Shown piece after piece: positions 15,687 to 54,442 of a stretch of DNA of 64,000 bases. The position numbers were made by a program, and so were the translations under genes. The stretch lies in contig CAVYGQ010000001.1 of assembly GCA_963768175.1 (NCBI GenBank), positions 840,717 to 904,716 of the forward strand. The letters are read 5' to 3'. The notes beneath the pieces were generated by a model. The model worked only from the letters and a program-made list of their open reading frames with translations. It had not been told where the DNA came from and searched no databases. Each line of letters opens with the position of its first letter. The stretch's first letter is position 1. Source of the stretch: Candidatus Doudnabacteria bacterium (lineage in GTDB: Bacteria > Patescibacteriota > Doudnabacteria > UBA920).

Positions 15687-15692
15687 AAAGGT

Positions 15693-19072: not shown

Positions 19073-19165
19073 AAATGACAAAAATGAACAAAAATTAAAA
19101 AATGACAAAAGTTATTGCAGTAGTATTTTTGTCATTTTTATTATTTATTTAATTTTTGTCATTAT
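19073..19165. repeat. AT-rich TGACAAAAAT repeat element (copy 2)
   Basis: aaatgacaaaaatgaacaaaaattaaaaaatgacaaaag...tttttgtcatttttatt. Confidence 0.75.
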
Positions 19166-21904: not shown

Positions 21905-22459
21905 TTAGAGTATCTGATGATTTTTTGACAAACTTAAACCATGCGATAACAACCAGGCCTCAACCTCTTTAGCTATTTTTTCGCTCATCCAATAACCCCT
22001 GGAAAGAGCAGCAATATCGGTTTTGGTAAGATCTTCAATAGTTTGAATGTTTGATCGTTTTGCCGTGGTATAAAAAGAGTTCGTGGCTCTAGTTCTTGAA
22101 AGCTTAATTATTGTCACTGGTTGTTTTAACAATTCTTGCTTAATATGTATCTCATTTTCTGCTATACGTTCTGCTTCCTTGTCTAATAAAGGTTTAAGTT
22201 TCCTAATCTCCGGATTAGTTTTTTCGTTTCGAGAAAGATCGCGAATAGGTTTTTCAATTTCAGCCATGGTTTCAGCTGTAATTGGATCTTCCACTTGGTT
22301 TATTCTTCTCTCTATTTCTTCGGAGCGGCGTTGAGTATTTTCAGGATTCACGAAATACCCTTTCTTATTATCATTCCCGCGAAAGCGGAAATTAGATTCC
22401 CGATCAGCTTTGGAATGACATAATGATAATAAATTATGGAATAAACCTAAAATTCTCAA
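21905..22459 (-). CDS. Hypothetical protein whose C-terminus resembles an RNA polymerase alpha-CTD-like HhH domain
   Basis: The C-terminal segment NIQTIEDLTKTDIAALSRGYWMSEKIAKEVEAWLLSHGLSL resembles an alpha-CTD. Confidence 0.4.
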   Translation of the reverse strand: MRILGLFHNLLSLCHSKADRESNFRFRGNDNKKGYFVNPENTQRRSEEIERRINQVEDPITAETMAEIEKPIRDLSRNEKTNPEIRKLKPLLDKEAERIAENEIHIKQELLKQPVTIIKLSRTRATNSFYTTAKRSNIQTIEDLTKTDIAALSRGYWMSEKIAKEVEAWLLSHGLSLSKNHQIL

Positions 22460-23924
22460 ACTGCCAAACGTCCGCGGCCGGTTTGCTGGCCGGGTTTTCT
22501 TTGAAGTAGATTTTACGATTCTTTAGGGGCGTCCAGTCAGACGGCGTGGAAATAAAGTCGCCGAGATAAGGTTTTGCAATATCCAGCACAAAATCGTGCG
22601 GCAAGTCGTCAGGCAGGCAAATACCTTTTTTCGGATTTTCAAACATCCATAGTACGGCGGCAATTACGCCTAGCGCGACCTGTAAAGTGGTGGCATTTTG
22701 GCCAGGTGCCAGCCTCCGGGCTTCCTGTATGCTTAAATCGCTCCCTGTCCACCAAGAATTATACCGATGCCCCATCAGTAGCGCGCCTAAAATGTCCGCC
22801 CCGGAAGTAATCTCATCTTCCAAAATTCTTATCTTGGACTGCATTTCGTAATTCCTGCCGCGAAGTTCGCATAAAGAAGATAGTGTTTCGTGGCACGGCA
22901 TATACGCGTAATGCACTGTCGGGCGGTAAACTGCCCTATCTCCATCCCAAACTGTTAACCTGTCGGATAACCCAAATGCTTCGCCGTGGCGAATGACCAT
23001 GCCCACAATTTCTTCGTTGGGAATCCATGACCTTACCCAGGTATTAATTCCCATTTGGGAGAGCATAATCTGATTTTTTGGCCCGTAAGGCGGAATATTA
23101 GCCAAGTCCGGTAGCCTTTGTTCGTGTGTGCCCCAACCCATCTCGGCCGGCGCGGTTCCTTCTTCCCGCAAGCCTTCCACGCTCCAGGTTCCTACAAATT
23201 CATCAACTTCTTTTGGGCGATTGGTAATTTGCGTGTCGCGCTCGCTGCAGTGGATTACTTTGATTCCCAATTTTTGTCCGAGCAAATTGAATTTGAGGTT
23301 TTTAATATAATTTTCCAGTTCTTCCCTGTCTTTGCCAGCCACTTTTTTATCTGCGATTGTTTTATTGCCGATATCAATCAATCCTTGTTTGACAAAATGG
23401 GAGATCAAACCGGGGTTTGCGCCATGGTCCACGACTGCCGTAGTGGCGTCTTTCCAGTCTTTGGACATGTCGTGCAGTTTCATTTGGCGCCAGTAAAGCG
23501 ATTTTTCAAATGGGCTGTCAGTAAATAATCCCTTAATGGAATCCCAGATTTCAACCGAAGTATTTACATACAAAACATTATGGTCGTGGCACCAGCCGAT
23601 AATATCATTAGCACCAATATTCCATGCCAAATCTATAATCAGGCCGCCCTTGTCTGTGTATTTGGCCAACTCCGGGCCTAGGTTTTCCGGCGTAATCCTG
23701 TTGCGTACAAATTTGATGCCCTTGTCCGTGAATTTTTTTAAAGCCGCTGCTTTGTCTTCAAAATCCATTACCGTGACGTTTTTTGGGTCAACCTCAATTT
23801 TTTCCAGCAGAATCGGCAGGGTGCACTGCGACACCGCGCCATAACCGATAATCAAAATTTTGCGGTCAAACTTTTTTTTTCCGCCGGAGGCGGATCCGCC
23901 TTTAGCGGACATACGTTTTTCCAT
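22434..23924 (-). CDS. hss: Homospermidine synthase / saccharopine-dehydrogenase-family enzyme
   Basis: NAD-binding N-terminus (ILIIGYGAVSQCTLPILLEK) and 496 aa. An in-frame AKGGSASGG cassette sits near the N-terminus. Confidence 0.55.
   Translation of the reverse strand: MEKRMSAKGGSASGGKKKFDRKILIIGYGAVSQCTLPILLEKIEVDPKNVTVMDFEDKAAALKKFTDKGIKFVRNRITPENLGPELAKYTDKGGLIIDLAWNIGANDIIGWCHDHNVLYVNTSVEIWDSIKGLFTDSPFEKSLYWRQMKLHDMSKDWKDATTAVVDHGANPGLISHFVKQGLIDIGNKTIADKKVAGKDREELENYIKNLKFNLLGQKLGIKVIHCSERDTQITNRPKEVDEFVGTWSVEGLREEGTAPAEMGWGTHEQRLPDLANIPPYGPKNQIMLSQMGINTWVRSWIPNEEIVGMVIRHGEAFGLSDRLTVWDGDRAVYRPTVHYAYMPCHETLSSLCELRGRNYEMQSKIRILEDEITSGADILGALLMGHRYNSWWTGSDLSIQEARRLAPGQNATTLQVALGVIAAVLWMFENPKKGICLPDDLPHDFVLDIAKPYLGDFISTPSDWTPLKNRKIYFKENPASKPAADVWQFENFRFIP
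23880..23903. repeat. 24-nt palindromic cassette AAAGGCGGATCCGCCTCCGGCGGA (in minus orientation) in frame in hss
   Basis: Identical 24-mers occur at 44773-44796 (murA) and 53990-54013 (murF). Each encodes KGGSASGG. Confidence 0.85.
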
Positions 23925-28136: not shown

Positions 28137-28937
28137 TTAGTCCTGGCAGGCCTCGATGATGTTGTCGATGATGAGCTCCACCGCCGCCAGAGGATCCTGG
28201 GCGGCAGTAATGTCGCGGCCAACTACAATGCCGTTAGCGCCGCCGCTGATGGAGTTTCCTGGCGTTGCCACTGCCTTCTGCTCTTGCTTTGCGGAGCCAG
28301 GCAGTCGGACGCCAGGGGTGTAAATCAGGAAGTCCGGCCCGCAGGCTTCGCGGATAGCGGCGACTTCCAAAGGTGAGGCGATGACACCGTCGCAGCCGCA
28401 TTCCTGGGCCAGCTTGGCGTATCGAACAACGAGCTTGAGCCGATATGGCTCCTCGACCCCTTCTGGTTTCAGGCCAAGATCCACCAGGTCTTCCTCGCCG
28501 AGGGTGGTCAAGAGAGTTACGGCCAGCAGGAGAGGCTTGCGTTGCAGGTCGAGCTTAGCGGCGGTGGTGTCGATGGCTTCGCGGGCGGCTTTCATAGCCG
28601 CCTTGCCGGCAAAGGCGTGCATGTTGAACATAAGCGGTCGGAGACGGGTCAGGGCTGTTGCCGCGCCCTTGACCGTATTGCCTATATCGGCGAGTTTGCA
28701 GTCCATGAAGTCGGTGCCGACAAGCTCGCCAAACAGGTCCCGCAGGTCCTCGAGCGCCGTAAGCGCATCATCGTAGTCGGCGGTCACCAGAGTGGTAAAC
28801 ACCGAAAGTATGAACTCAAAGCCGATCTTGAACCCGCGCACCTTGCCTTTCAGCATGGTGACGAGCCCTGTGGCTTTGATCACATTGTCTACATCCAAGG
28901 CCACGATAATCCGTGACCCCGCGTCTTTTCGAGTCAT
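28137..28937 (-). CDS. pyrF: Orotidine 5'-phosphate decarboxylase, second copy, GC-rich (xenolog)
   Basis: IIVALDV start and the DxKxxDIxNT motif (MDCKLADIGNTV). Confidence 0.75.
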   Translation of the reverse strand: MTRKDAGSRIIVALDVDNVIKATGLVTMLKGKVRGFKIGFEFILSVFTTLVTADYDDALTALEDLRDLFGELVGTDFMDCKLADIGNTVKGAATALTRLRPLMFNMHAFAGKAAMKAAREAIDTTAAKLDLQRKPLLLAVTLLTTLGEEDLVDLGLKPEGVEEPYRLKLVVRYAKLAQECGCDGVIASPLEVAAIREACGPDFLIYTPGVRLPGSAKQEQKAVATPGNSISGGANGIVVGRDITAAQDPLAAVELIIDNIIEACQD

Positions 28938-32440: not shown

Positions 32441-32548
32441 GACGTCATTCCGAGCGCCTGCAATATCGCGCGAGGAATCTCTTATTGGCAGTTCGTTATT
32501 TAAGAGATCCTTCACCCTTCGGATGCACTCGGGGTTCAGGATGACGCC
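32441..32548. repeat. Palindromic element of the GGCGTCATYCTGA...TCAGGATGACGCC family (copy A, intergenic, degenerate left end)
   Basis: It shares the GAGATCCTTCACCCTTCGGATGCACTCGGGGTTCAGGATGACGCC right half with copies at 43990, 54177 and 57344. Confidence 0.8.
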
Positions 32549-32618
32549 GCTAATTTGGATGTTTGAGCCTTGAAAAATGTCAGTACTTGGGGTATAATCT
32601 ATAGGCAAATTTGATAAT

Positions 32619-34134: not shown

Positions 34135-35085
34135 CTAAACCACTTTCCACTTCCCTTGCTCATCTTTCATCAGCTTTCCGGCTACGGAAAATCCGGCCGC
34201 TAGTTTATGCCCGCCGCCGCCAAAAATATGGGCGATTTTGGAAACATCTATATTTTTAAAAGTATCCGAGCGCAGGCTTCCCTTTATTACCCCGCCGTCC
34301 TGGCGCAAAAACATGGCGAACTTGGCTTCGGGCATGGTATTTAAGGTCTCGGTAAACCCTTCAAAGGCGGCCTGCGGCAAACTTGTGAATTCCGCCAAAT
34401 CTTTTTCCGTCATTACGGAATAAATGATCTTATTTTTTTTGTCGTAGTAGGAATTTTCCATAGCTTTGCCCCAGGCTTTTAAAATTTGAGGCGATTTGTT
34501 TTTGTAGGTTTCCCGGATAATTTTATGGCTCTGCGCGCCTTTGCGCAAAAGCAGTCCGGCGGTTTTTAGTGTGGAGCTTTGGGTGTTTGAGTGCATAAAA
34601 CCACCCGTGTCGGTAATAATTCCTGTGAGCAGACAAGTGGCAATGTCTTTGGTAATTGGCCAGTTATTAAAGTTAAAAAAGTCATAAACCAGTTCCGCCA
34701 CCGAAGATTTTTTTGCATCCACCACATTGACATGGCCAAAGCCCGTATTGTCGGGATGGTGGTCTATATTTAATATTGGGATATCCAATTCCATAATTTT
34801 TGGGCTGCCACAGCGGGTTTTTTCCGAGCAGCCAAAAGTAATCACAAGATCAAAGTTATTATTTTCAATATCATCGACAATTTTTTCCGCACCGGGCAAG
34901 AAGCTTAAATTCGGCGGCACTCCTTTTTTAACGGCGTAAGTTACCTGCTTGCCCATTTTTTCCAGTTGTTGCCCCATAGCCAAAAGCGCGCCCCCGTCAT
35001 CGCCGTCCATGCGCTCGTGCATGGTTAGGATAATACGCTTTGATTGATCAATTAAGTTTTTTGCTTTTGTAAATTCTTGCTCCAT
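34135..35085 (-). CDS. nrnA: DHH-family phosphoesterase (NrnA-like oligoribonuclease/pAp phosphatase)
   Basis: DHH (NIDHHPDN) and GGGH motifs; DHHA1 C-terminus. Confidence 0.8.
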   Translation of the reverse strand: MEQEFTKAKNLIDQSKRIILTMHERMDGDDGGALLAMGQQLEKMGKQVTYAVKKGVPPNLSFLPGAEKIVDDIENNNFDLVITFGCSEKTRCGSPKIMELDIPILNIDHHPDNTGFGHVNVVDAKKSSVAELVYDFFNFNNWPITKDIATCLLTGIITDTGGFMHSNTQSSTLKTAGLLLRKGAQSHKIIRETYKNKSPQILKAWGKAMENSYYDKKNKIIYSVMTEKDLAEFTSLPQAAFEGFTETLNTMPEAKFAMFLRQDGGVIKGSLRSDTFKNIDVSKIAHIFGGGGHKLAAGFSVAGKLMKDEQGKWKVV

Positions 35086-35205
35086 AATACCGTTAATGCA
35101 AAATTTTCAATTTTTAATTTTCAGTTTTCAAACAATTTTTAATTATCCAATTTTAAAATTAAGTTATTGAAAATTGTTTAGAAATTAGAAATTGAGAATT
35201 ATAAA

Positions 35206-35691
35206 TTATTTTTCCTCGTGTATTTTACGTATAACTTCGTCTATATGCTGCACATATCTCGGGCTAGTGTCTAGATGGAAGCTTATTCGGGGAATGACTT
35301 TGGTGGCAAAGTGCTTGTTAACTTCGCCCTGGAGGTCGTAAATGTTTTTTCCCAAAAATGTTAAGATTTTATAGTCCAAAGATAGAGCAGTCTGAGATTT
35401 TTTATCAGCCTGCGACAAACTTTTTTTCCCTCTCCCTTCTTGCCCGCCGTAGCCTTGGCGAAGGCGGGTGGGAGAGGGTGCCCCAAGCCCGTCTTGGGGC
35501 GGGTGAGGGTCTGGGTTAAAAATAGAAATCCAAATTTTGGCGTACTTCATATCTTTGCTGGTTTCCACTTTGGTTATGGTCACCAGGCCTTTTTGCCAAT
35601 CCAAAAATTTATGCAAAACCGGCCCCAATTCGTGCTGGATTAAGGAGTTTACCTTAGCTATGCGGTTGGTGTCTTTTTTTACCGGCTTCAT
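35206..35691 (-). CDS. rbfA: Ribosome-binding factor A with an in-frame insertion of about 40 aa
   Basis: RIAKVNSLIQHELGPVL and the C-terminal KH-like part match RbfA. The middle segment NPDPHPPQDGLGAPSPTRLRQGYGGQEGRGKK is encoded by a GC-rich hairpin element. Confidence 0.75.
   Translation of the reverse strand: MKPVKKDTNRIAKVNSLIQHELGPVLHKFLDWQKGLVTITKVETSKDMKYAKIWISIFNPDPHPPQDGLGAPSPTRLRQGYGGQEGRGKKSLSQADKKSQTALSLDYKILTFLGKNIYDLQGEVNKHFATKVIPRISFHLDTSPRYVQHIDEVIRKIHEEK
35427..35516. repeat. REP-like hairpin element in frame in rbfA (conserved loop GTAGCCTTGGCGAAG)
   Basis: cccgcc-GTAGCCTTGGCGAAG-gcggg, the flanking cctctccc/gggagagg stem and a second hairpin gccccaag...cttggggc. Confidence 0.7.
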
Positions 35692-35750
35692 AAATTTAAG
35701 TTAGCTGAGTATTGTATATCTTTTATTGCCTTTTAGCAAGAGTGTAAAGT

Positions 35751-36482
35751 TTATATGGTATTCCAAAAATGGTTGAGAATTATGCTTACGGTTTCATATA
35801 TATCGGCGCTTTCAACCACCAGCCCCAGCGAGCTGTCCCCTTCCTGGGTAATAAAAGCCACTTTTCCGTTATAGGCAAACATTTCATTTTTAAACGGAAA
35901 ATTTTGGGCTGGTATTAACTTGGTTTGCCTTAAAGCGAATTTGTCTTTTGATTGTAAATCTTGATAAAAGGGAATATCAGGGGCGATTATTTTTACAAAA
36001 TTTCCTTTTTTTACCCTTCTTTCCACGTATTCTTCGCCCCAATAGTCTCGGATTTTTTCATCAGGCAGTTTTGTGGAAAGTACCTCTATATAGTTGGCAT
36101 GCTTGGATAAAATATCTTCATAAATTTCCTTAATGCCCTCAAGCCCTTGATATATCCTGACTGATGGTTTTTTGCCGGCATGGCTCTGGATAGCCAAAAG
36201 CTGTCCCATGATGTTATCTAAGGCATTCTCTTTTTGTTTAATCAATGGAAAAATATTCTGTGGGTCTTCCACGATGTATATTTTGCGTTTGCCTTTCAAA
36301 ATAGTTTTAATCAATCCTTTTTCTTTTAAGCTGTCTACGAGTTCATAAACCGTGGCGCGTTTTAATTTGGCATTATTAACCAGTTCCTGCATAGTCGCGG
36401 GACCGGTTTGCAGGCCGGCCAAGTAAAGAGCGGACTCTTTTTCGCTTAGTCCGATTTTTTGCAGGTTTTGTTCTAAATTCAT
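35751..36482 (-). CDS. TrmB-family transcriptional regulator (paralog 2)
   Basis: wHTH LGLSEKESALYLAGLQTGPATMQELVNNAKLKRATVYELVDSLKEKGLI. Confidence 0.8.
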   Translation of the reverse strand: MNLEQNLQKIGLSEKESALYLAGLQTGPATMQELVNNAKLKRATVYELVDSLKEKGLIKTILKGKRKIYIVEDPQNIFPLIKQKENALDNIMGQLLAIQSHAGKKPSVRIYQGLEGIKEIYEDILSKHANYIEVLSTKLPDEKIRDYWGEEYVERRVKKGNFVKIIAPDIPFYQDLQSKDKFALRQTKLIPAQNFPFKNEMFAYNGKVAFITQEGDSSLGLVVESADIYETVSIILNHFWNTI

Positions 36483-36631
36483 AAAGTATCGGTAAAACCG
36501 ACGATATTTTAATTACAATATAACCTTATTTTAAAGGATATTTTTAATATTGTCAATAATATATATCAAGATTATTGATATATTTAACAAATTAGTGTAT
36601 AGTGTTTGGTCAACCTTAAGGAGGGTTGGGT

Positions 36632-37277
36632 TATGAGAATATTAGTCGTTGACGACGAGCCCATCAATTTGCTCGCCGCGCAGCAGACTTTGGTTGGGCA
36701 CGAGTTAGTGCTCGTTGACGGTTACGATAAGGCAACGGTACTTTTGGAGCCGGCCGCATACGAAGAAGAGATCACAAAACTCCAGGGAGGGGAAGGCCAC
36801 CGCATTAGCTACCGGCAAGTGCAAGAGATGTTACGCAAGTCTACCAAAGTGTTTGATGCCGTCTTAACTGACCTGCTCATGCCCCCAGGCAAGAGGGGGC
36901 AATCACCGCGGTCTCGCGAAACGTTCCAGAACCTCCCATTTCCTTCGGGGGTGATGCTCGCCCTGCACGCGATCCGGCAAGGCGCAAAGTATGTCGCTGT
37001 GTTCACAAGCGGGATCAACCATCACCACAATCCCGCGGTCTGGATGATGGAGCCGCTCAGGTGGGGCTGGAACGCTACGCCGCAGAAGTTCTTGGTCAAC
37101 GGAGCCATTTTGGGATTCTTTGATGAGTGCGATGGCGGTCGCGTCCCTGTAGATGGCACTGTGTGTCAGGAATGCAATGGCAAAGGTTGCCTAACATATT
37201 GTCATGAAACTGGCAAGCTTTTTGCCAAGAACTGGGGAAGGGTTCTTGAGGAGCTCATCAAGCACCACAACAGCTAG
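36632..37277 (+). CDS. Orphan REC (receiver)-domain protein with a Cys-rich C-terminus; GC-rich
   Basis: MRILVVDDEP..DAVLTDLLMP..VAVFTS gives REC beta1, beta3 and beta4 signatures, and CQECNGKGCLTYCH follows at the C-terminus. A strong SD (aaggaggg) is present. GC is about 58%. Confidence 0.65.
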
Positions 37278-37396
37278 GGAGTTTCGTACCGGACGCGAAT
37301 GCACTTTTTGCGCCCGGTTTTCTTTTGGCCAAAAATAAACCCCCTTATGGGGGTTCGGCGTTATCTCAGCGTCGCTATCAGCGATTGATCAGCGGT

Positions 37397-39331
37397 TTAT
37401 AACGTCTTCTGTTTTATCTTTTCCTCAAAACTCTCCAAGACATCCCCGACTAAAATTTTAATCGGGGTTTTTATTTTCATGCCGAATTCTTCGCCGGAGT
37501 TTACCGACTTAGATATAACTTTGCTTTGCTGGAGCTCCTCAATTTCTCCGCGGCCTAGCTCGGTATCGGCTCGCCAAACGTTAATGTGGCTGGTCTTTTT
37601 TAACAAGCCTTCTTCCACGCGGCCGCCAACAATCATTTGGCCTTTTTCCGTCATAAAAATTGCTAGAACTTTAGCCTTGCCTAAAACGTGTTTTTCCAGC
37701 TCAGGCGTAAACATCTTTATAACCGCCGAAGTAATATCTTCCAAAAGTTCGTAAATGACGTCGTAGGTATCTATAATAACCTTTTTTTGCTTGGCTAAAT
37801 TAATGGCTTTGGGGTTTACTTTGGTGCGAAAGCCGACAATTACGGCTTTGGAGCTGCCGGCGAGCAAAACATCGGACTCGTTAATTTCCCCCACGCCTTC
37901 GCTTAAGATGTTAATTTTAACCTCATCATTTTTTAATTTGGCCACGCTCTGTTTAATGGCTTCCAGCGAGCCGGCTACGTCGGTTTTTAAAATCAAATTT
38001 AAAGTTTTATTTTCCAAATTCCCCACAATGGCTTGTTTGCTGGAAAGTTTGTGGCTGTGGTTTTTGCGCTGGACCAAAACGGCAATAGCCTTGGCTTCGT
38101 CCAAAGTCGCGGTGGTCTGCAAAATGTCGCCGGCCTGCGGAACTTCCGAAAGCCCGGAAATTTGCGCGGCCGTGGAAGGCGTGGCTTCTTTAAGCTTGCG
38201 GCCGGTCTCGTCTTCCAGGCTCCTGACCCTGCCAAACGCGGCGCCCGCGGCAAAAATATCGCCAACCCTTAGCGTGCCGTTTTGCACCATAACCGTGGCC
38301 GTGGCCCCTTTGCCCTGGGTGATTTTGCTTTCTATAATTGTGCCCACCATTTTGCCGTGCGGGTTGGCGCGCAAATTTTCCATTTCCGCCGTCAGTAAAA
38401 TCATTTCTAAAAGCTGGTCTATGCCCTTGTTTTGTTTGGCGGAAATTTCGCAGGCAATGACCTTGCCTCCCCATTCTTCGGTAAGCACCCCTTGACCGGC
38501 CAGCTCTTGCTTAACCCTGGTAACGTTGGCTTCGGGCTTATCTATTTTGTTTATGGCCACAATCATGGGCGTGTTGGTGAATTTGGCGCGATTGATGACT
38601 TCCAAAGTCTGCGGCCTGACGCCGTCGTCCGCTGCCACAACCAACACGATAATGTCCGTTACGTTGGCACCGCGCGAACGCATCTCAGAAAAAGCTTCGT
38701 GGCCAGGAGTGTCCAAAAAAGTTATCCATTTGTCGTTTTTCTTTACTTTGTAGGCGCCAATATGCTGGGTAATGCCGCCGCTTTCGCCTTCGGCCACTTT
38801 GGTTTTACGGATGGTATCCAAGAGTGTGGTTTTGCCGTGGTCAACGTGTCCCATAATGGCAACTATGGGCGGGCGCGGTTTTAGGTTTTCTTCTTTTTCA
38901 GCTTTTAAGACTTCGTTTAAAAACCCTAAGCCGTATTCCGCTACGCTCTGGTCAGCTTCTGTCTCTACCTCAAAACCTAAATCCTGGGCCACAATGCTGG
39001 CGGTATCAAAATCTATTTCCTCGTTAATGGAAGCCATGACCCCGTTGTTTATCAGCACGGTAATAACTTTGGTTACCGGCAATTTTAACAGTAAGGCAAA
39101 ATCGCGGACTTTAATGAACGAAGGCAATTTAACTTTTATTGGCGTAATAGGAAGGCTGGTCGAAGATCCTGAGCGATTAGTCGAGGGACCAAAAGCTTCC
39201 AGCAGTTTTCGCGCTACGTAATTGTCTACCTTGTTGGCTTTGGGCGAAATGAAATAGCCTTTCTCCTTGGCCTTAAGGCGAACGTCTTGTATGGACATAT
39301 TCAGTTGTGAGGAGAGAGATGAGAGGTTCAT
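37397..39331 (-). CDS. infB: Translation initiation factor IF-2
   Basis: G-domain [15 protein letters not shown] and DTPGHEAF motifs, 644 aa. Confidence 0.93.
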
Positions 39332-39417
39332 GTTTTATTCCTCTCCTTTTTAAGGAGAGGCTAGGTGAGGTTATTTTGCGTTTAACTTATTGATTATACT
39401 CATAAATCTTAATAAAA

Positions 39418-40174
39418 TCAAGACATTTTAGCGCTTGGACTTGCGTCCCAAATTGTCTCAAACAACTTAATTTCTCCAGCCACGATATCCGGGCTTTCAA
39501 TAATTACCGTTACCAATTCTTTTTTGGAACTGAAGATTGCCACTTTATTTCCGTAAATTAGTTTTGAACTGTTATATAAATGGTTTTCCGGCAAATATTT
39601 TACTTCCCTTAGAAGTTCGGCGTGATTGGCTGTTAAAAAAGATTCCGGCATCTGGGATTTAAAATATAAAGCTTTAAAGTTTATACGTTTTTTCAATCTG
39701 GTTGGGATATAGTAGTTTAAATCCCAGATCCTCGCCGATGACTTTATGGATTTCGCTAATTGAGCCAATGTGCCTGACGGTGGAATTGAAAGTTTTGAGG
39801 GAATCCTCCGAGGCAATAAAGTATCCTTCTTTGCCTTCGTAGTAAGTAATCTGCGGTTTCAGATCTGGTTTTTGCGCCAGACTGTTTAATTGCGGCAAGA
39901 TACTTTTTAAGTCGTCTAATTCTTTTTCTGTTTTAGATGCCAAAATATGCGGCGGTGTGGCCACAAATTTTAACCCGCTCCGCATTTTAAAACTGCCCAT
40001 TAAACCCTTTTTCTCCAAAGCCTGGAAAATTACATAAGCCGAAGTTCGTTTTAGTTGCGCTTCCAGCGCCAATTCCGACATCCCCGCCTCACCAAGTTTA
40101 AGCGATGCCAAATACAAAGCCACTTCGCCGTCTTCCAGCCCTAATTCTTTAAGAGTTTGTTTAATGTCTTGCAT
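39418..40174 (-). pseudogene. TrmB-family regulator (paralog 3), frameshifted into two overlapping ORFs
   Basis: ORF 39674-40174 carries the N-terminal wHTH (LGLEDGEVALYLASLKLGEAGMSELA). ORF 39418-39816, in another frame, carries the TrmB C-terminal region (KVAIFSS..VTVIIESPDIVAGEIKLFETIW), which is homologous to paralog 2. Confidence 0.6.
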
Positions 40175-40432
40175 ATTAAATACAAATAAATTGATGCCTG
40201 AGCTTGTCGAAGGCTCAATTTATTTGTCCCTTCGACTTTGCTCAGGGGACAAATAAATTTAAATTTGACGTTTTTTACGTCAACAGTATATCAAATCTAA
40301 TAAAAATAAGCAAATAAAGGCAAAATATATAATAAATTATGCCACAATTATTGACGTTATGTCAATTTTGATGTATTGTTATCGGTCAAAACAAAAACAC
40401 CTGACGAGGTTAACAACGCAAAGGAGGTAGTT

Positions 40433-40876
40433 ATGAATATTTTGGTTGTAGAAGACGATCCGAAGCATATGAAGGAGGCTGTTGAGGTCATTCAAGCCGC
40501 CGGACACGAAGTGATACAGGCAACTGATATGTATAGAGCCAGGGAGTATCTCTACGATGACCGCCCCGACGGAGTAATTACTGACCTTTTTATTCCGGAT
40601 GGTGCGGGAGGAGTAAATGAAGATGCGGATCAGCCGCGAGGCCTAGGAATTGTCTTAATGGCGCAGCAGGAAGGCATTCCTTGCATCATCTGCACCGCAG
40701 GATATCACCACGGATCCAAGTACAACTGGATCTGCGGACTCGGGCGGAGGTTGCACTGGCCACCGATGGTAGATCAGCTTCAGGATCGGCACAACTACGA
40801 GGTGGAAAGCCAGTCGAAAGACTGGCAAGAAGCGCTCGACACCCTGGTCAAGATCATAGTGGCCAAGGGATATTAA
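40433..40876 (+). CDS. Orphan REC-domain protein, paralog of 36632-37277; GC-rich
   Basis: MNILVVEDDP..DGVITDLFIP..CIICTAGYHHG. A strong SD (aaaggaggt) is present. It is divergent from TrmB paralog 3. Confidence 0.65.
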   Translation: MNILVVEDDPKHMKEAVEVIQAAGHEVIQATDMYRAREYLYDDRPDGVITDLFIPDGAGGVNEDADQPRGLGIVLMAQQEGIPCIICTAGYHHGSKYNWICGLGRRLHWPPMVDQLQDRHNYEVESQSKDWQEALDTLVKIIVAKGY

Positions 40877-40962
40877 CAGCCAATGTGTTCAAAAACCGGC
40901 GGTTGTTCGGCGTTAGGAGGCGCGCGAACTACTGACCGGTTTTGTTTTGGCAGAATTGTTTA

Positions 40963-40994
40963 CTTGCTAAACTCACGGCCGTGAGTTTAGCAAG
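40963..40994. terminator. Perfect palindrome CTTGCTAAACTCACGGCCGTGAGTTTAGCAAG (a family member is at 60009-60040)
   Basis: A 14-bp stem lying between convergent genes. Confidence 0.65.
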
Positions 40995-40995
40995 T

Positions 40996-41322
40996 TTAGG
41001 TATTTGCTCTGGCCAAAGTCGCAAATTGCAAAAAGTATTTATTTAAACCTTCCGGGTTTTGCGGTTTATCGGATAGCTCCAGGCAGGCGTTTTCCCGCAG
41101 GCGGCATAGCTCTTTTAGTCTTGGCCCGCGCCAACGGGGATCGTTTATGGTTAAATCCGTCAATTCAAGCATTCTATCAAAGGCTTTTTGGAAATAAGCG
41201 GGCTGGTTTTTTTGTTTCCATCTTAAAGCCCGTCCGAACTCACTGCCTATGTTGCCAAGCTGTTCTTCAAGCGACATTTTTTGCCATTTTTGTTTTATCT
41301 CAGGACCATGGATGTATCCCAT
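40996..41322 (-). CDS. Hypothetical protein (108 aa)
   Basis: An ORF with no recognised domain. Confidence 0.4.
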   Translation of the reverse strand: MGYIHGPEIKQKWQKMSLEEQLGNIGSEFGRALRWKQKNQPAYFQKAFDRMLELTDLTINDPRWRGPRLKELCRLRENACLELSDKPQNPEGLNKYFLQFATLARANT

Positions 41323-41423
41323 AAATTTATTTTAGGTTATCTGCGTTCTAGATCCCGGATATTTTTTGTGGCTTGTGATAATCATCAGCACAAAAAATTC
41401 CGGGATGGAACACTAAGGGGTAT

Positions 41424-42266
41424 TTAGAATGTACGGTTTTTTCCCACAATCATCTTCAGCCTCTGAGGGATTATTTCCACGGTGCTGGGGAATTTGGCAA
41501 CAACGCGGCCGAGCATGGTCAAATTGGTGCCGCGCGGCTCCAAAAATTCAATTTTTTTGCATTTAATGACTGTGGTATTGGGCACCTTTTCCAGACAGCC
41601 TTCTGAAATAATGTTGCGGTATTTTAAAACCTGCATTTTATTAAGGTGCTCCATTATGAGCAGATCTAAATTGCCGTCCGTGGGGTTGGCGATTTTTTCG
41701 CTTTGGCAGGAAGTGGAACGGATGTTGGCCACCAGTCCGCCGAGCCCGTTTATGGTCACGTTGTAAGAATCATCCACCCGGATGGTAAAGCCTTTTGCCT
41801 CCGAAGAAAGCAGCTTCAGGCTTTGCCACAAAGAGGCGGTTTTGATGTTGTGGGACATTACGCCAAATTCCAGAAAGCTGATAAAATAATTGCCGGAAAT
41901 TTTGGCCAGGTCAATTTTTTCTATGCGCCTGGCGGCAATGGTTTTTACGCCCAAAAAGACGTTTTCAATGCCTAAAATTTTTGCCAAATTTGAATTTTCA
42001 TCAAACGGGATAAAACCCAAAGTAAAATCCCGCCCCTTAAGCGCCGCCAGCATTAAGTTAAAGGTATCGTCACTGCCGCAGGCCACCAAAGTATTGGTGC
42101 CTCTTTGGCTGGCCGTATCCACCAAATCCTGCACGCTGCGCAAGGGAGTTACCCTTGAAGCCTCGCCGGAAACTTTAAATTCGGCCAAAAGCCCGGAAAG
42201 CTCGGTCTGGAGCTTCTCAAATTTTTCCATGGGCAAATTGTGCTGGTCGAGGATATAGTAGTGCAC
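41424..42266 (-). CDS. Diacylglycerol-kinase catalytic-domain lipid kinase (YegS-like)
   Basis: The VACGSDDTFNLMLAAL region resembles the GGDGT motif. The start is a GTG. Confidence 0.6.
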   Translation of the reverse strand: MHYYILDQHNLPMEKFEKLQTELSGLLAEFKVSGEASRVTPLRSVQDLVDTASQRGTNTLVACGSDDTFNLMLAALKGRDFTLGFIPFDENSNLAKILGIENVFLGVKTIAARRIEKIDLAKISGNYFISFLEFGVMSHNIKTASLWQSLKLLSSEAKGFTIRVDDSYNVTINGLGGLVANIRSTSCQSEKIANPTDGNLDLLIMEHLNKMQVLKYRNIISEGCLEKVPNTTVIKCKKIEFLEPRGTNLTMLGRVVAKFPSTVEIIPQRLKMIVGKNRTF

Positions 42267-42271
42267 AAAAG

Positions 42272-42368
42272 AAATGACAAAAATTAAAAAAATAATAAAA
42301 ATGACAAAAATAAATGGGCCTATAATTTTTGCTCATTTATGCCAATTTTGTCATTTTTGCTCATTACC
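42272..42368. repeat. AT-rich TGACAAAAAT repeat element (copy 3)
   Basis: aaatgacaaaaattaaaaaaataataaaaatgacaaaaat...ttttgtcatttttgctcatt. Confidence 0.75.
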
Positions 42369-42369
42369 T

Positions 42370-42788
42370 TTACTCTTCTGGTTCAATAAGGGGTTCGGCT
42401 TTTTCCACGGGAGTTTTCTTGCCGCTGCCCCCGCTTACTCCGTTGCCGCCCATAACGCACTTGCCGGAAAATTGGGCACCGTCTTCCACCCTAAAAACCG
42501 TGCAGACAATATCCCCTAAAACTTTTGCCGTACTCTGTAATATCAAATGCCCGGATATTTTTAAGTTACCCTGTATTTCCCCGCCGACCACGGCATTGCC
42601 CGCCAAAATGTCTGCCGCAATTTTGGCCCCGGGACAACAAATACGCTCTGGCTAGTTTTGACTTTGCCGCTTACCTGGCCTTCTATTTTTATGTTGCCTT
42701 CGCTGTTTAAATCTCCTTGAATTTTAACGCTGGGGCCGACTACGGTTTCGGCCGGGCTGTTTAGGTTCTCGTCTAAGGTTTTGTCCAT
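42370..42788 (-). pseudogene. Bactofilin (DUF583), split by a 1-nt frameshift in a ggccccggg run
   Basis: The N-terminal ORF (42561-42788) ends ...KVKTSQSVFVVPGPKL. The C-terminal ORF (42370-42606) continues in another frame with ...PGAKIAADILAGNAVVGGEIQGNLKISG. Joined, they give a canonical bactofilin. Confidence 0.6.
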
Positions 42789-44094: not shown

Positions 44095-45648
44095 ATGCAA
44101 AACCTTATAAAGGATCAGCAGAAAATCGGCCAGTTTATAGCCGAAGTCCGTGAGCTTAAAGGCTTTACCCAAAGCCAGTTTGCCAAAAGCTTAAAAACCA
44201 GCCAGTCAGCCGTAGCCAGGATGGAAAGCGGCCAGCAAAACTTAACTACAGAGATGCTGGCTAAGATTAGCGCAGTTTTGAACCATGAAATTATTACGTT
44301 GGCCGACAAGTCGGTAAATTTTAAAATAGAAGGCGGGCGGAAACTTTCGGGAAGGGTCGCGGTTAATACTTCCAAGAATGCCGCGGTGGCGCTGTTGTGC
44401 GCTTCTTTGCTTAATGAAGGTAAAACTATTTTTAAGAATGTGCCTAAAATAGAGGAAGTCTACCGGGTAATTGAAGTTTTGGTCAGTCTTGGCGTCTCGG
44501 TAAAATGGCAGGGCGCGGATGTGGAAATTTTGCCGGGCAAAAAAATTACCATAAATAAAATAGACAAAGAAGCCGCGGTTAAAACCAGAAGCGTTCTTAT
44601 GCTGCTTGGGCCTTTGGCTCATATTCTTCCCGCTTTTAACCTGCCTTTGGCCGGCGGCTGCAAACTGGGCGAACGGACCGTGAGGCCGCATTTGTTTGCT
44701 TTGGAAAAGCTTGGAGTTAAAATTCAGACCCATCATGACCATTACGCCGTAAGCTCGGCTAAAGCTCCCGCCAAAGGCGGATCCGCCTCCGGCGGAAAAA
44801 CCGCGGAGGTAGTGCTTTACGAAATGGGTGACACAGTGACGGAAAACACGCTTATGGCCGCGGCAAAAATAAACGGCGTGACCACCATCAAGCTGGCCTC
44901 TTCCAATTACATGGTGCAGGATTTATGTCATTTTTTGCAAAGTTTGGGCGTAAAAATTGAAGGCGTGGGTACCTCCACCTTAAAAGTGCATGGCAAACCG
45001 CACATTAACCAGCGTGTGGTCTTTTATTTAAGCGAAGACCCCATAGAAGCCATGCTGTTTTTGTCTTTGGCTGTCACCACAAATTCTTCCATAACCGTTG
45101 AGCGCTGCCCCATAGACTTTTTGGAGCTGGAACTGTTGAAATTGGAAAAGATGGGGTTTAAGTACCGGATTATTAAGCGTTATAAAAGCCATAACGGTAT
45201 TACCAATTTGGCAGATATTAAGACTTTCCCGTCTAAATTAATCGCGCTGGAAGAAAAAATCCACCCGTTGACGTCCTCGGCCGGAATTAATATAGATAAC
45301 CTGCCGTTTTTTGTGCCCATTGCCACCCAGGCCAAAGGCACCACGCTGATTCACGACTGGGTTTACGAAAATCGCGCTATTTACTATTTGGAATTAAATA
45401 AGCTGCGGGCCAATATAATTTTGGCCGACGCCCACCGCGTTTACATAGACGGCCCGACCGAACTTAAAGCAGGCGAAGTCATTTGTCCCCCTGCCCTGCG
45501 CCCGGCCGCGATAATTCTAATTGCGATGTTAGCCGCCAAAGGCACCTCTATTCTCCGCAACGTTTATTCCATAAACCGCGGCTATGAGAATTTGGTGCAG
45601 CGATTACAGAAGCTCGGAGCCAAGATCGAAATGATACATGGCATGTAA
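44095..45648 (+). CDS. murA: UDP-N-acetylglucosamine 1-carboxyvinyltransferase fused to an N-terminal XRE-type HTH domain
   Basis: Residues 1-65 form an HTH_3 domain (IGQFIAEVRELKGFTQSQFAKSLKTSQSAVARMESGQQNL). The MurA core follows (KLSGRVAVNTSKNAA...). An in-frame AKGGSASGG cassette is also present. Confidence 0.85.
   Translation: MQNLIKDQQKIGQFIAEVRELKGFTQSQFAKSLKTSQSAVARMESGQQNLTTEMLAKISAVLNHEIITLADKSVNFKIEGGRKLSGRVAVNTSKNAAVALLCASLLNEGKTIFKNVPKIEEVYRVIEVLVSLGVSVKWQGADVEILPGKKITINKIDKEAAVKTRSVLMLLGPLAHILPAFNLPLAGGCKLGERTVRPHLFALEKLGVKIQTHHDHYAVSSAKAPAKGGSASGGKTAEVVLYEMGDTVTENTLMAAAKINGVTTIKLASSNYMVQDLCHFLQSLGVKIEGVGTSTLKVHGKPHINQRVVFYLSEDPIEAMLFLSLAVTTNSSITVERCPIDFLELELLKLEKMGFKYRIIKRYKSHNGITNLADIKTFPSKLIALEEKIHPLTSSAGINIDNLPFFVPIATQAKGTTLIHDWVYENRAIYYLELNKLRANIILADAHRVYIDGPTELKAGEVICPPALRPAAIILIAMLAAKGTSILRNVYSINRGYENLVQRLQKLGAKIEMIHGM
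44773..44796. repeat. 24-nt palindromic cassette AAAGGCGGATCCGCCTCCGGCGGA in frame in murA
   Basis: Identical to the copies in hss and murF. Confidence 0.85.
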
Positions 45649-45713: not shown

Positions 45714-48209
45714 ATGGCGGAAACAAACAACAATTTGGGTTTATCATCAGCCGAAGCCGCTAGCAGATTAAGGCAGTACGGCTATAACGAAATTGCGGAA
45801 AGCAAAAGGCTATCCGGGCTTTTGGCTTTTTTGTTAAGGTTCCGCAATCCGCTGGTGCTGATTTTGGTCTTTGCGGCTACGATATCAGCTGTAACCGGGG
45901 ATCCCGTCAGTGCGCTGATTATCATCAGTATTGTACTGCTGTCCGTTATCTTAGATTTTTTTAATACCTACAAATCCCAAAAAGCCGCGGAAGAGCTGAT
46001 AGAAAAAGTGGAAATTACAGCCGAGGTATTGAGAGGCGGCATAGTGACTCCCCTGCCGCTGCGCTTGATTGTGCCCGGAGACGTGGTGGAACTTGAGGCC
46101 GGAGACGTAATTCCCGCAGACGGCAAAATTTTAAGCGCCAAAGATTTATTTTTGAACGAATCTTCGCTAACCGGCGAATCTTTTCCCGCGGAAAAGCAGG
46201 AAGGCTTGCCTATTTTTTTGGGAACCAACGTGGTTACCGGCACTGGCCGGATGCTGGTGGAAGTTACGGGTAAAAAAACCAAGTTCAGCAAAATCGCGGA
46301 AAGTCTGGAAGCGCCGGAAAGGCCTACGGATTTTGACCGCAGCATAAAAGATTTTAGCTACTTAATTATGAAGATAACTTTTGTCTTGGTTATCTTTATT
46401 TTTTTGGTTAACGCCATACTCAAAGGCAGCACTTATATTTTGGAGTTGTTTTTGTTTGCCGCGGCCTTGGCCGTGGGCTTGACGCCGGAGCTTTTGCCCA
46501 TGATTATTACGCTTAATTTATCCAAGGGCTCTTTGGCCATGTCCAAGCACGGCGTAATTGTAAAAAAACTATCGGCCATCCAAAACTTTGGCGCTATGGA
46601 TGTATTGTGCACCGATAAAACCGGCACGTTGACGGAAGACAGGATTGAACTGGTCAAGTACGTGGACGCCGAGGGCAAGCCGGATGAAAACATTTTTAAG
46701 TACGCTTACCTTTCCAGCAGTTTCCGCAGCGGCTTTAAGAATCCGCTGGATGTGGCTGTAAAAAATTTCAAGATGTTTGATATTGGCGGCAAATCCGCCT
46801 TCGCTGAAGCTTCGGCGGATGACTCGCTATCAAATATATTAATGGGAGTCAAAAAAATAGACGAAATCCCCTTTGATTACCGGCGCAAGCGCGATTCCAT
46901 TATCGTGAAAACTTCTCAAGGCTATGAGCTTATTTCCAAAGGCGCGCCTGAAGAAATGTTTGAGACCTGCAGTTTTTATAGCCAGATGGGTAAAAAACTC
47001 ACCCCTACTATAGCCAAAAAATTGGAAAAAGAATATCAGGCTTTAAGTGCCGACGGCTTTAGGGTTTTGGCTGTGGCCTGCAAGACGCTTCCGGAAAAAA
47101 CGGCATACGAAAAAGAAGACGAAAGGGATTTGGTTATATTGGGCTTTATTGCTTTTTTGGATCCGCCCAAAAAGAGCGTGACCGAAACCCTGCGGACTTT
47201 GGAAAATTATGGCATCGCCATAAAAGTTATTACCGGCGATAACGAAATTATTACCAAAAAAATCGCTCAGGAAATTAATTTGCCCGTTTTGGGCAGTTTG
47301 ACCGGGGCAGAGATAGAAAAATTGACCGATCGGCAGCTAGCAATAGATGCGGAGAAAACTACAGTTTTTGCGCGCGTTACGCCGGAACAAAAAAAGCGCA
47401 TTATTTTGGCTTTGCAAAAAAATAAACACGTAGTCGGGTTTATGGGCGATGGTATAAATGACGCGCCGTCGCTTAAGACCGCGGACGTGGGCATTTCGGT
47501 TAACAACGCGGTGGACGTGGCCAAGGAATCGGCCGATTTAATTTTATTGCACAAGAGTTTAAAGGAGCTGGCTTTAGGCGTTATCCAGGGCCGCAAAACT
47601 TTTGCCAATACTTTAAAGTATTTAATGATGGGTTTGAGCTCAAATTTCGGCAATATGTTTTCCATGGCCGGAGCATCCATGTTTTTTCCGTTTTTGCCCA
47701 TGCTGCCGGCCCAGATTTTGCTAAATAATCTGCTGTATGACGGCTCGCAGTTTGTCATTCCGCTGGACAATGTGGATGAGCAGGACATTGCCAGGCCACG
47801 GCAAATGAAGATCCATTTTTTGCGCAGATTTATGGTGGTTTTTGGCATTTTAAGTTCGGTGTTTGATTTTGTGACGTTTTTAGTGTTAACTTTTGTCTTC
47901 CATTATACCAACCACTACTTCCAGACCGGCTGGTTTATTACCTCTTTTGCCACGCAAATTTTAGTGGTATTTGTTATCCGCACCAAGCAGGTGCCGTTTT
48001 TCAAAAGCAAGCCGGCTAAGTCCTTAGTTATTTCCGTGTTTAGTTTTTTGGCTTTAGCCCTGCTTTTGGCCTTAGGCCCGATAAAAAATATCTTCGGCTT
48101 TGCCCCGCTTTCGCTGGCCATGGTTTTAAGCGCTTTCCTTATTACCCTGCTCTATTTAATCTGTATTGAGTTCGCCAAAAGCAAATTTTACCAATATGTT
48201 TCGGAATAA
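45714..48209 (+). CDS. Cation-transporting P-type ATPase (MgtA-like)
   Basis: DKTGTLT, TGDN and GDGINDAPSL motifs, 831 aa. Confidence 0.8.
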   Translation: MAETNNNLGLSSAEAASRLRQYGYNEIAESKRLSGLLAFLLRFRNPLVLILVFAATISAVTGDPVSALIIISIVLLSVILDFFNTYKSQKAAEELIEKVEITAEVLRGGIVTPLPLRLIVPGDVVELEAGDVIPADGKILSAKDLFLNESSLTGESFPAEKQEGLPIFLGTNVVTGTGRMLVEVTGKKTKFSKIAESLEAPERPTDFDRSIKDFSYLIMKITFVLVIFIFLVNAILKGSTYILELFLFAAALAVGLTPELLPMIITLNLSKGSLAMSKHGVIVKKLSAIQNFGAMDVLCTDKTGTLTEDRIELVKYVDAEGKPDENIFKYAYLSSSFRSGFKNPLDVAVKNFKMFDIGGKSAFAEASADDSLSNILMGVKKIDEIPFDYRRKRDSIIVKTSQGYELISKGAPEEMFETCSFYSQMGKKLTPTIAKKLEKEYQALSADGFRVLAVACKTLPEKTAYEKEDERDLVILGFIAFLDPPKKSVTETLRTLENYGIAIKVITGDNEIITKKIAQEINLPVLGSLTGAEIEKLTDRQLAIDAEKTTVFARVTPEQKKRIILALQKNKHVVGFMGDGINDAPSLKTADVGISVNNAVDVAKESADLILLHKSLKELALGVIQGRKTFANTLKYLMMGLSSNFGNMFSMAGASMFFPFLPMLPAQILLNNLLYDGSQFVIPLDNVDEQDIARPRQMKIHFLRRFMVVFGILSSVFDFVTFLVLTFVFHYTNHYFQTGWFITSFATQILVVFVIRTKQVPFFKSKPAKSLVISVFSFLALALLLALGPIKNIFGFAPLSLAMVLSAFLITLLYLICIEFAKSKFYQYVSE

Positions 48210-48771: not shown

Positions 48772-48944
48772 TTTGACTTCGTTTCAGCAAGTTGAAACTT
48801 CGCTTATGGTTTTCGACCATATTACCGACGAATGTTTATACTTAGATAAAGTCGAATGTCTTGAGCGAGCGAAGCGAGTCGAAAGGCACTCACTCTCGTG
48901 GCCTTCGGCCAAATAATTCCCCCGATAAGGGGTTTTATCGTCTT

Positions 48945-49415
48945 ATGTTAAAAATTGAAATAATCGCTTTAGGAAAATTCAAGGAAAAGGCTTACAGGGA
49001 TCTGGAAGCCGAGTTTTTAAAGCGCTTGTCCCCCTTTGCCAAAATTAAAGTTATTGAACTGCCGGAAATCGGTTACGGCAAGAACCAGGATTTGGGAAAA
49101 ATTAAACAGCAGGAAGCGGAAAAAATAGTTAAACAATTGCCGGACGGCGGGGTAATAATTTTGCTGGAAGAAAAGGGAACATTGCGCAATTCCAAGGATT
49201 TTGCCGGTTTTTTAGAGCGGGTTGGCGGCTTGGGCAAAAAATTGGTTTTTGTCATCGGCAGCGGTATTGGTCTGCACGAATCAATCCGCCAATACAGCAA
49301 CTACACCATTTCCCTGTCCCCTCTTACTTTCCCGCACAATATGGCCAGGATCATTCTTGAGGAGCAGATATACAGAGCGTGTACCATTTTGTCCGGGAAA
49401 GACTATCATAAGTAG
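48945..49415 (+). CDS. rlmH: 23S rRNA (pseudouridine1915-N3)-methyltransferase RlmH
   Basis: The SPOUT fold (MLKIEIIALGKFKEKAY...VFVIGSGIGL). Confidence 0.75.
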   Translation: MLKIEIIALGKFKEKAYRDLEAEFLKRLSPFAKIKVIELPEIGYGKNQDLGKIKQQEAEKIVKQLPDGGVIILLEEKGTLRNSKDFAGFLERVGGLGKKLVFVIGSGIGLHESIRQYSNYTISLSPLTFPHNMARIILEEQIYRACTILSGKDYHK

Positions 49416-54403: not shown

Positions 54404-54440
54404 TGACAAAAATTAAAAAAATGACATAATTGACAAAAAT
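54402..54440. repeat. AT-rich TGACAAAAAT repeat (copy 4, short) between murF and alr
   Basis: taatgacaaaaattaaaaaaatgacataattgacaaaaatt. Confidence 0.7.
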
Positions 54441-54442
54441 TC

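Follow-up and report, generated by a model that had tools for sequence, protein, structure and literature searches.

Single-domain receiver genes that adjoin and diverge from genes for winged-helix DNA-binding proteins have been described in Thaumarchaeota, where receiver-only genes are divergent from ArsR-type winged-helix genes (for example Nmar_0452-Nmar_0453; Galperin et al. 2018, PMC5847659). A related arrangement is found twice in a stretch of 64,000 nucleotides from Candidatus Doudnabacteria (contig CAVYGQ010000001.1, positions 840,717 to 904,716; hereafter the window), where one module lies on each side of infB. In module 2 a short TrmB-family regulator gene, trmB2, faces REC2, a gene for a stand-alone receiver (REC) domain, and in module 3 a frameshifted trmB3 faces a second such gene, REC3. 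As in Thaumarchaeota, a single-domain receiver gene adjoins and diverges from a winged-helix gene. However, the regulator is of TrmB or AsnC type here and ArsR/HTH_20 there, the hosts here are bacteria of the candidate phyla radiation (CPR) as well as DPANN archaea, and the receiver subfamily is also different. An earlier note on this DNA had not recognised the pairs as a described system, and the thaumarchaeal genes are a genomic precedent against that. The arrangement is an extension of known kinds, not a new signalling system. No paper was found in the literature that names both TrmB and either Patescibacteria or the candidate phyla radiation.

Both modules are accessory fillings of two fast-turnover slots beside infB. 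The two regulator/receiver pairs themselves are real, as confirmed by the open reading frames (ORFs) and by Pfam TrmB matches, and the AAGGAGG Shine-Dalgarno sequence reported ahead of both REC genes is present at 36618 (REC2) and 40421 (REC3). Of the REC gene boundaries first proposed, that of REC3 stands (40433-40876), while the REC2 start moves from 36632 to 36633. Gene order was compared in 37 contigs carrying infB relatives (29-94% infB identity over the best segment). The backbone order in relatives is murA / DUF4446 / bactofilin / DAGK / infB / rbfA / DHH phosphoesterase / FMN reductase, DAGK being a diacylglycerol-kinase-like gene and DHH a DHH-family phosphoesterase gene. rbfA follows infB within ~35-150 bp in at least 13 related contigs, more distant ones included, and DAGK is directly before infB in many relatives. 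Thus module 2 occupies an otherwise tight junction and splits infB from rbfA, as had been proposed, and both pairs are insertions relative to the conserved DAGK-infB-rbfA-DHH order.

The infB-rbfA and DAGK-infB slots are closed, with the core genes adjacent, in many of the 37 loci, and variably filled in others. Content and presence vary at these fixed positions even among relatives with 90-91% infB identity: the infB-rbfA slot holds a metallo-beta-lactamase-fold protein (read from sequence) in L028, a GC-rich protein of 189 amino acids (aa) in L029, and a zinc-ribbon protein plus another TrmB paralog in L033. DNA homology of the window to relatives ends at the infB stop codon (37397) and returns just upstream of rbfA (~35699); on the other side of infB it ends near 39430 and returns at DAGK (~41421). 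The breaks in homology beside infB, together with the variable fillings, identify the modules as derived fillings of two hot spots. Within them, it is on balance probable, if by no means assured, that each module is a small accessory islet, consisting of a short TrmB-family regulator and a divergent orphan single-domain response regulator with a shared AT-rich spacer, in which the TrmB protein would control the REC gene that it faces.

The slots resemble flexible genomic islets and hot spots, in that positions between conserved genes hold differing accessory ORFs in close relatives. They also resemble, by analogy, integron cassettes, with a cargo ORF lying between a fixed promoter plus Shine-Dalgarno sequence and a hairpin. 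Unlike those of islets and cassettes, the exchanged unit here can be a single ORF, and neither an integrase nor a transposase, an attI/attC consensus or a target-site duplication was found here. No recombinase is present among the neighbours and no terminal repeats bound the modules, and the earlier description of the pair as possibly mobile met with no link to an integrase, a transposase or a virus. PHROGs gave no informative matches, just receiver-like or helix-turn-helix (HTH) families mostly of unknown function, PADLOC returned a receiver-domain match to one Shedu model only, and scans of IMG/VR with both family alignments found no relatives on viral contigs. A phage or defence origin is rejected on these outcomes.

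Base composition was also raised as a sign of foreign REC genes. The GC content of about 58% first given for them is too high, the whole ORFs having 54.3% (REC2) and 51.6% (REC3), against 38.5% for trmB2 and 39.9% for trmB3. The corresponding z-scores are only 1.9 (REC2 ORF as listed, 36606-37277) and 1.1 (REC3 ORF as listed, 40376-40876), and three other window genes, for example the housekeeping gene at 28137-28937, are richer in GC, so that composition is at most suggestive of foreign origin. The description of the modules as duplicated holds as far as paralogy is concerned, but the paralogy is old. Identity is 25% between REC2 and REC3 (BLASTP E 3e-5) and 35% between the trmB2 and trmB3 proteins, and the modules are therefore not recent duplicates of each other.

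Other small elements were seen in the same hot spots. BrnT/BrnA-like toxin-antitoxin pairs, read from the sequences, are found in L028 (4953-5511, 5883-6432), L033 (4085-4745), L039 (8774-9410) and L041 (8975-9527). Short duplicated 3' ends of DAGK flank a 108-aa gene in relatives (L028 5697-5837; L030 5162-5230), a pattern that suggests insertion with target duplication.

Known proteins related to the two regulators are the sugar-responsive TrmB and TrmBL1 of Thermococcales. The trmB2 product aligns to residues 10-185 (of 342) of Pyrococcus furiosus TrmB (3QPH; E 4e-6), and both window proteins carry the TrmB-type winged helix (PF01978, Table 1), which is also present in all 35 trmB2 homologs listed. 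As in the archaeal proteins, this N-terminal domain is followed by a dimerisation helix. The present proteins differ in being shorter (243-250 aa against ~340) and in being without a match to the C-terminal sugar-binding part: this effector domain was not found in trmB2 or trmB3, with no Pfam match past residue 72. They also score far under the cut-offs of the NCBIfam TrmB equivalogs (29-40 bits against 500-650; for instance 39.8 against 600), and their genes are bacterial, multi-copy, and each adjoin a variable cargo gene. At least 14 ortholog clusters of trmB2 are found at 76-90% identity. trmB3 consists of two overlapping ORFs, with one extra base near 39727 relative to the intact orthologs in L033 and L032; the orthologs in L033, L032 and L038 are each in a single frame. 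As trmB3 is frameshifted in the present genome, REC3 may be deregulated.

There are four TrmB paralogs in the 64-kb window, among ~60 genes. One of the further copies (8682-9434, minus strand) faces an ORF at 9493-9894 (133 aa, GC 0.50) in a layout like that of modules 2 and 3, followed by an ORF at 9968-10552 (194 aa, GC 0.58) with no Pfam match. The other starts at 63286 on the plus strand, runs past the window end (64000), and faces small ORFs, among them a CxxC...CxxCxGxG protein at 62620-62922.

REC2 and REC3 are receiver domains by fold and catalytic residues, and belong to a distinct subfamily that is missed by curated models. They have a (beta-alpha)5 flavodoxin-like fold that can be superposed on solved receiver domains. 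Against the Pfam receiver profile PF00072, a search proposed in the earlier note, REC3 is barely over the threshold (30.7 bits against a cut-off of 30.2, with the alignment confined to the first domain half, profile positions 1-57 of 111), while REC2 has no Pfam match at E < 0.1. Nothing was matched by REC2 in NCBIfam, PHROGs or PADLOC either, a sequence search with REC2 against the PDB returned nothing meaningful, and a Foldseek search gave receiver matches that were weak. A family profile was built from 25 members and searched against 1.84 billion proteins, which gave 192 cluster representatives at E < 1e-30 and 2,567 at E < 1e-10. Nearly all are stand-alone and 126-307 aa long, and the sources of the family are Patescibacteria, Woesearchaeota and Pacearchaeota. 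No homolog of REC2 above 38% identity was found in 5.8 billion proteins.

The canonical receiver residues that had been read in the two proteins are borne out. REC2 and REC3 each carry all five residues of the receiver quintet, which is conserved across 167 family representatives (D/E7 166/167, D8 165/167, D80 167/167, T/S125 167/167, K199 164/167; REC2 numbering), the acceptor Asp being D80 in REC2 and D51 in REC3. The family thus shares with CheY-like REC-only regulators (PF00072) the (beta-alpha)5 fold, the acidic pair, the Thr/Ser after strand 4, the Lys after strand 5, the acceptor Asp in a D-L-x-M/I-P context, and the lack of an output domain. It differs from them in lying below or barely at the Pfam threshold, in the family motifs T-D-x-N-H-H-x-H-P and K-D-W, in a loop of 15 to 20 residues after the acceptor Asp, in an optional helical insertion following helix 2 and a zinc finger of DnaJ type inserted ahead of strand 5, in being found only in Patescibacteria and DPANN in the sampled set, and in having no kinase or chemotaxis genes nearby. 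In REC2 these features take the form of additional helices behind helix 2, a lengthened loop following D80, and a Cys4 zinc finger inserted before strand 5. The cysteines C178, C181, C186 and C190 had been taken for a Cys-rich tail; they are in fact an internal insertion, ahead of strand 5, K199, a conserved K-N-W (K-D-W in most family members) and helix 5. CxxC motifs occur in ~40% of the family, inserted between helix 4 and strand 5 and often of the DnaJ-type CxxCxG form (58/167 representatives). G106, H131 (167/167), H130 (151/167) and W201 are near-invariant and specific to the family.

The absence of an output domain, as first observed, is also borne out. A receiver-HTH fusion of the Rosetta-stone kind is absent from the ten longest family members scanned, among which P0162 is a double receiver. 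One family member has a weak match to the BSD2 cysteine-rich domain. In L051, two ORFs (1233-1978; 124 and 117 aa) that are receiver-like by eye only fill the infB-rbfA slot with no adjoining TrmB gene, and Asn replaces the acceptor Asp in them (VIANE, VMANE).

No histidine kinase was found in the 64-kb window, which is part of a 949-kb contig, in agreement with the earlier note, and no H-box or G1-box motif is present. The window ORFs were read or run against Pfam, a few (for example 48861-49415 and 62569-62979) being covered by motif scan alone, and those read or Pfam-scanned are housekeeping genes or have no kinase domain. The flanks of related REC-like loci likewise contain no kinase. CPR and DPANN genomes have the lowest kinase frequencies known (PMC10805038).

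With kinases so scarce, the family might consist of pseudo-receivers or enzymes, in which the receiver scaffold is kept without Asp phosphorylation, H131 with H130, N129, H133 and D140 binds a metal or ligand or carries out catalysis, and the zinc finger contacts nucleic acid or protein. H131 and H130 are conserved as strictly as the catalytic Asp, the same-slot L051 ORFs have lost the acceptor, and the DnaJ-type motifs and the BSD2 match would fit such a role. However, the full quintet is kept in at least 98% of members, which is hard to explain without phosphoryl chemistry, and the L051 ORFs are called receivers by eye only. Thus this is considered an unlikely explanation. The complete phospho-acceptor chemistry argues instead that the REC proteins would be phosphorylated, on D80 in REC2 and D51 in REC3, the phosphoryl group coming from a distant kinase or from a small molecule such as acetyl phosphate. 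They would then work by contacting other proteins via the helix 4 / strand 5 / helix 5 face, which bears the family N-H-H motif, the K-D-W motif and, in REC2, the zinc finger.

The association of TrmB with REC genes recurs across bacteria and archaea, but it is not a fixed one. Among ~21 independent REC-like loci, 8 face a TrmB gene and 2 a different winged-helix regulator; at 3 more a TrmB gene lies no further than 3 kb away, and at the other 8 there is none. The facing TrmB-REC layout is found in the bacterial contigs L002, L011/L015, L012, the P0015 contig and L033, and in the archaeal contigs L019 and L021, while archaeal L013 and L020 have a divergent AsnC-type double winged-helix regulator in place of TrmB. 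The co-occurrence of TrmB and REC genes, which the earlier note had proposed to follow across genomes, has this recurrence in its favour and, against a fixed pairing, the 8/21 loci without TrmB or another regulator as neighbour. The genes that face a given regulator are swapped. In L039, the gene opposite a trmB2 ortholog of 77% identity is unrelated and 95 aa long; trmB3 orthologs have opposite them REC3 in L011/L012, an unrelated 181-aa protein in L032, and in L033 a 59-aa peptide and a different REC-like protein (hhalign probability 98%). In L002, the TrmB gene beside a REC2-family member is closer to trmB1 than to trmB2. Such swaps, and the abundance of trmB2 orthologs at 76-90% identity against at most 38% for any REC2 homolog, do not agree with the pair as a fixed unit.

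These loci bear on two further explanations. In the first, the pair is a split response regulator of two unfused polypeptides, in which the phosphorylated REC protein binds the C-terminal region of the adjoining TrmB-like (or archaeal AsnC-type) protein and switches its DNA binding. A divergent winged-helix neighbour at ~10/21 REC-like loci, in bacteria and archaea and from two regulator families (TrmB in L002, L011, L019, L021 and L033, AsnC-type in L013 and L020), is consistent with this, as are the short TrmB proteins without a recognisable sugar-binding domain, and the same question has been raised for the archaeal REC-only/HTH pairs (PMC5847659). However, the two genes are not co-inherited, the L039 and L032 orthologs face unrelated proteins, the L002 regulator lies nearer to trmB1 than to trmB2, and the ten longest family members include no HTH fusion. 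A dedicated TrmB-REC protein-protein partnership is thus unlikely, and the split-regulator explanation as a whole appears rather improbable.

In the second, the genes are coincidental neighbours, abundant TrmB-like genes next to ordinary accessory REC-like genes, with TrmB acting elsewhere or as a nucleoid protein. The four paralogs in the window, the four in tandem in L032 and the high heterogeneity of the cargo facing TrmB would be expected in this case. However, for both REC genes of the window the immediate divergent neighbour is a TrmB gene, the chance of which is ~0.004 (~4 TrmB among 60 genes), and distant bacteria and archaea show the same layout again. Conservation of the spacers, inverted repeats and cargo Shine-Dalgarno sequence included, is also unusually high for non-coding sequence (85%, where the trmB2 proteins share 77% identity). 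Coincidence is therefore held to be very improbable. The conclusion drawn from these comparisons is that the TrmB-like protein would be a local regulator of whichever gene faces it, with REC-like genes as a recurrent, non-exclusive cargo.

The divergent spacers contain predicted promoters for both genes of each module. In module 2, the predicted trmB2 promoter is TTGACA-17-TAAAAT (11/12 consensus match) and the predicted REC2 promoter TTGATA-17-TATAGT (10/12). This spacer is 85% identical to that of the L039 ortholog through the Shine-Dalgarno sequence inclusive; the half-sites TGTCAATAAT / TTATTGATAT are kept and the centre is variable. In module 3, TTGAC-N5-GTCAA corresponds to a predicted plus-strand promoter for REC3 and a predicted minus-strand promoter (11/12) for trmB3. 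The palindrome with arms invariant in all five orthologous spacers, TTGACGT-N5-ACGTCAA, is the best candidate for a TrmB3 operator. Its geometry, with arms of 6-7 bp and an N5 spacer, is presumably that of the Thermococcales glycolytic motif (TGM) bound by TrmB-like proteins.

Palindromes had been noticed in both spacers as possible operators. They exist, at positions other than those first given, but the one in module 3 is rejected as an operator. It is formed by ACAAATAAATTGA/TCAATTTATTTGT at 40182-40194 and 40215-40227, a further copy, the third, lies at 40249-40259, and the whole folds at -17.6 kcal/mol (z -5.5). The orthologous spacers of L032, L015 and L012 do not contain it, and L033 has another GC-rich element there. 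Since no ortholog has it, it is an inserted element, not an operator, and it looks like a small insertion of the miniature inverted-repeat transposable element (MITE) or repetitive extragenic palindromic (REP) type with a duplicated target.

Table 1. Features of the two modules flanking infB (window positions).
Feature	Position	Strand	Description
rbfA	35206-35691	-	Pfam RBFA 1.9e-15; separated from infB by module 2
trmB2	35751-36482	-	243-aa short TrmB-family regulator; Pfam PF01978 3.1e-13
Module 2 divergent spacer	36483-36632		24.7% GC; inverted repeat, back-to-back -35 boxes, Shine-Dalgarno
Module 2 -35 box TTGACA	36556-36551	-	
Module 2 -35 box TTGATA	36575-36580	+	
Module 2 inverted repeat TCAATAAT / ATTATTGA	36553-36560 / 36571-36578		Overlaps the back-to-back -35 boxes
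REC2	36633-37277	+	214-aa stand-alone atypical receiver
Two hairpins between convergent REC2 and infB	37289-37356		CCGG...CCGGTTTTC at 37289-37321; G/C hairpin at 37337-37356
infB	37397-39331	-	Core gene with one module on each side; relatives at 43-91% identity
trmB3	39418-40174	-	TrmB-family regulator, +1 frameshift; Pfam TrmB (PF01978) 5.6e-9 for N-terminal ORF (39674-40174)
Palindromic insert in module 3 spacer/trmB3 leader	40182-40259		Strong hairpin between 11-bp direct repeats ACAAATAAATT; window-specific
TTGACGT-N5-ACGTCAA palindrome	40265-40283		Both arms invariant in 5/5 orthologous spacers
TTGAC-N5-GTCAA	40351-40365		Two overlapping divergent -35 boxes; kept in 3/5 orthologous spacers
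REC3	40433-40876	+	147-aa stand-alone atypical receiver without zinc finger
Long imperfect hairpin AACCGG...CCGGTT	40894-40941		Just 3' of REC3

Hairpins are also present on the 3' side of both REC genes. The pair between REC2 and infB is probably a bidirectional terminator, and L032, with an unrelated convergent gene, keeps the sequence 37289-37396. The hairpin 3' of REC3 is ~48 nt long (AACCGGCGGTTGTTCGGCG..CGCGCGAAC..CCGGTT), and related copies are found 3' of two unrelated cargo genes in L032 (1864-2274, 5339-6067) and just upstream of infB in L028 (6705-6765), which lacks module 3. Hairpins of this type could serve the modules as a common terminator, or else as the site at which they are bounded or recombine. 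A perfect 34-bp loopless palindrome (40962-40995, ACTTGCTAAACTCACGG|CCGTGAGTTTAGCAAGT) is placed between the REC3 hairpin and the 108-aa gene's stop codon. The CCGG...CCGGTTTT hairpins were also considered as DNA-uptake sequences; this idea is rejected, CCGGTTTT being ~2-fold enriched (14 against 7 expected) and mostly away from the modules. A known RNA element in the spacers is rejected as well, the sole Rfam match with E < 1 in 35000-42500 being to an implausible microRNA model, far under the gathering score.

Beside the conserved TrmB-like genes, cargo exchange is precise to the ORF (window 35700-37396, 39431-41421; L032 1-7001; L033 3899-6099, 8956-10885; L039 8700-10634). Homology spans the TrmB gene, the spacer and AAGGAGG(T), and breaks at the cargo start codon, both for trmB2 (window against L039) and for trmB3 (window against L033). 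The junctions thus fall directly after AAGGAGG(T) in two independent comparisons, with hairpins on the 3' side; in L032 the infB-proximal hairpins are kept to within 12 bp of the REC2 stop codon. Four cargo/TrmB pairs stand in tandem in L032, and cargo ORFs are usually richer in GC (0.50-0.60) than their own locus (0.38-0.46). A speculative reading, to which little probability is given, is that a TrmB gene with its divergent promoter, operator and Shine-Dalgarno sequence is a fixed expression dock, where single, usually GC-richer ORFs would be swapped in a cassette-like manner and without a recombinase between the Shine-Dalgarno sequence and the downstream hairpin, microhomology at the Shine-Dalgarno sequence and at the terminator being a possible driver. 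One recurrent class of cargo would then be the atypical receivers.

The favoured interpretation remains the small accessory islet in which TrmB controls the facing REC gene. A TrmB-like dimer would bind the inverted repeats over the back-to-back -35 boxes and control, most probably by repression, its own gene and the REC gene, and a ligand sensed through the truncated effector region would release this binding. The link between regulator and cargo appears to be generic, not specific, as the platform of TrmB, promoter and Shine-Dalgarno sequence fronts many unrelated cargo ORFs.

Several points weigh against this interpretation. About 8 of the 21 REC-like loci have no adjoining regulator, and with TrmB paralogs as dense as four in 64 kb, some adjacency to REC genes is expected by chance. 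The palindromes could be just two mirrored -35 boxes, with no separate operator. With no kinase in the window and few in CPR and DPANN genomes (PMC10805038), phosphorylation of the REC proteins may not occur. H131, which is invariant, and the His and Asn residues beside it are a hint of a chemistry foreign to ordinary receivers. Operator binding, ligand and phosphorylation are all inferred.

The window also contains repeats outside the two modules. rbfA has an in-frame GC-rich insertion of ~45 aa at 35371-35517 (PHPPQDGLGAPSPTRLRQGYGGQEGRG...), which includes a palindromic repeat with further copies at 24330 and 51486. L033, L037, L038 and L043 lack the insertion, and in L028, L029 and L061 it is different. 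AT-rich intergenic repeats of AATGACAAAAAT units, in direct and inverted copies that are up to 98% complementary over 40 nt, are found at 15686-15770, 19065-19165, 42264-42372 and 54393-54445. Short GC-rich palindromic repeats form families at 11957-11991, 46793-46827 and 61946-61980; at 23876-23912, 44768-44800 and 53981-54016; and at 32502-32551 and 54231-54280. Some of these are coding, with GGSASGG-encoding copies in the ORFs 22434-23924 and 44095-45648.

The receivers described here represent a sizeable family common to CPR and DPANN, of hundreds to thousands of clusters at 50% identity, which Pfam and NCBIfam miss or barely detect. In this family the phospho-acceptor chemistry is kept in full, joined by a His motif that is invariant and often by a zinc finger, and the family thus offers a concrete biochemical target. 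The flanks of infB are accessory-gene hot spots where conserved TrmB-like regulator/promoter units face ever-changing cargo, which is relevant to the ways in which foreign genes are taken up and controlled in streamlined genomes. Themes already known (orphan receivers, winged-helix regulators acting locally and flexible islets) are thereby extended to a new lineage and subfamily, and current understanding is not overturned.

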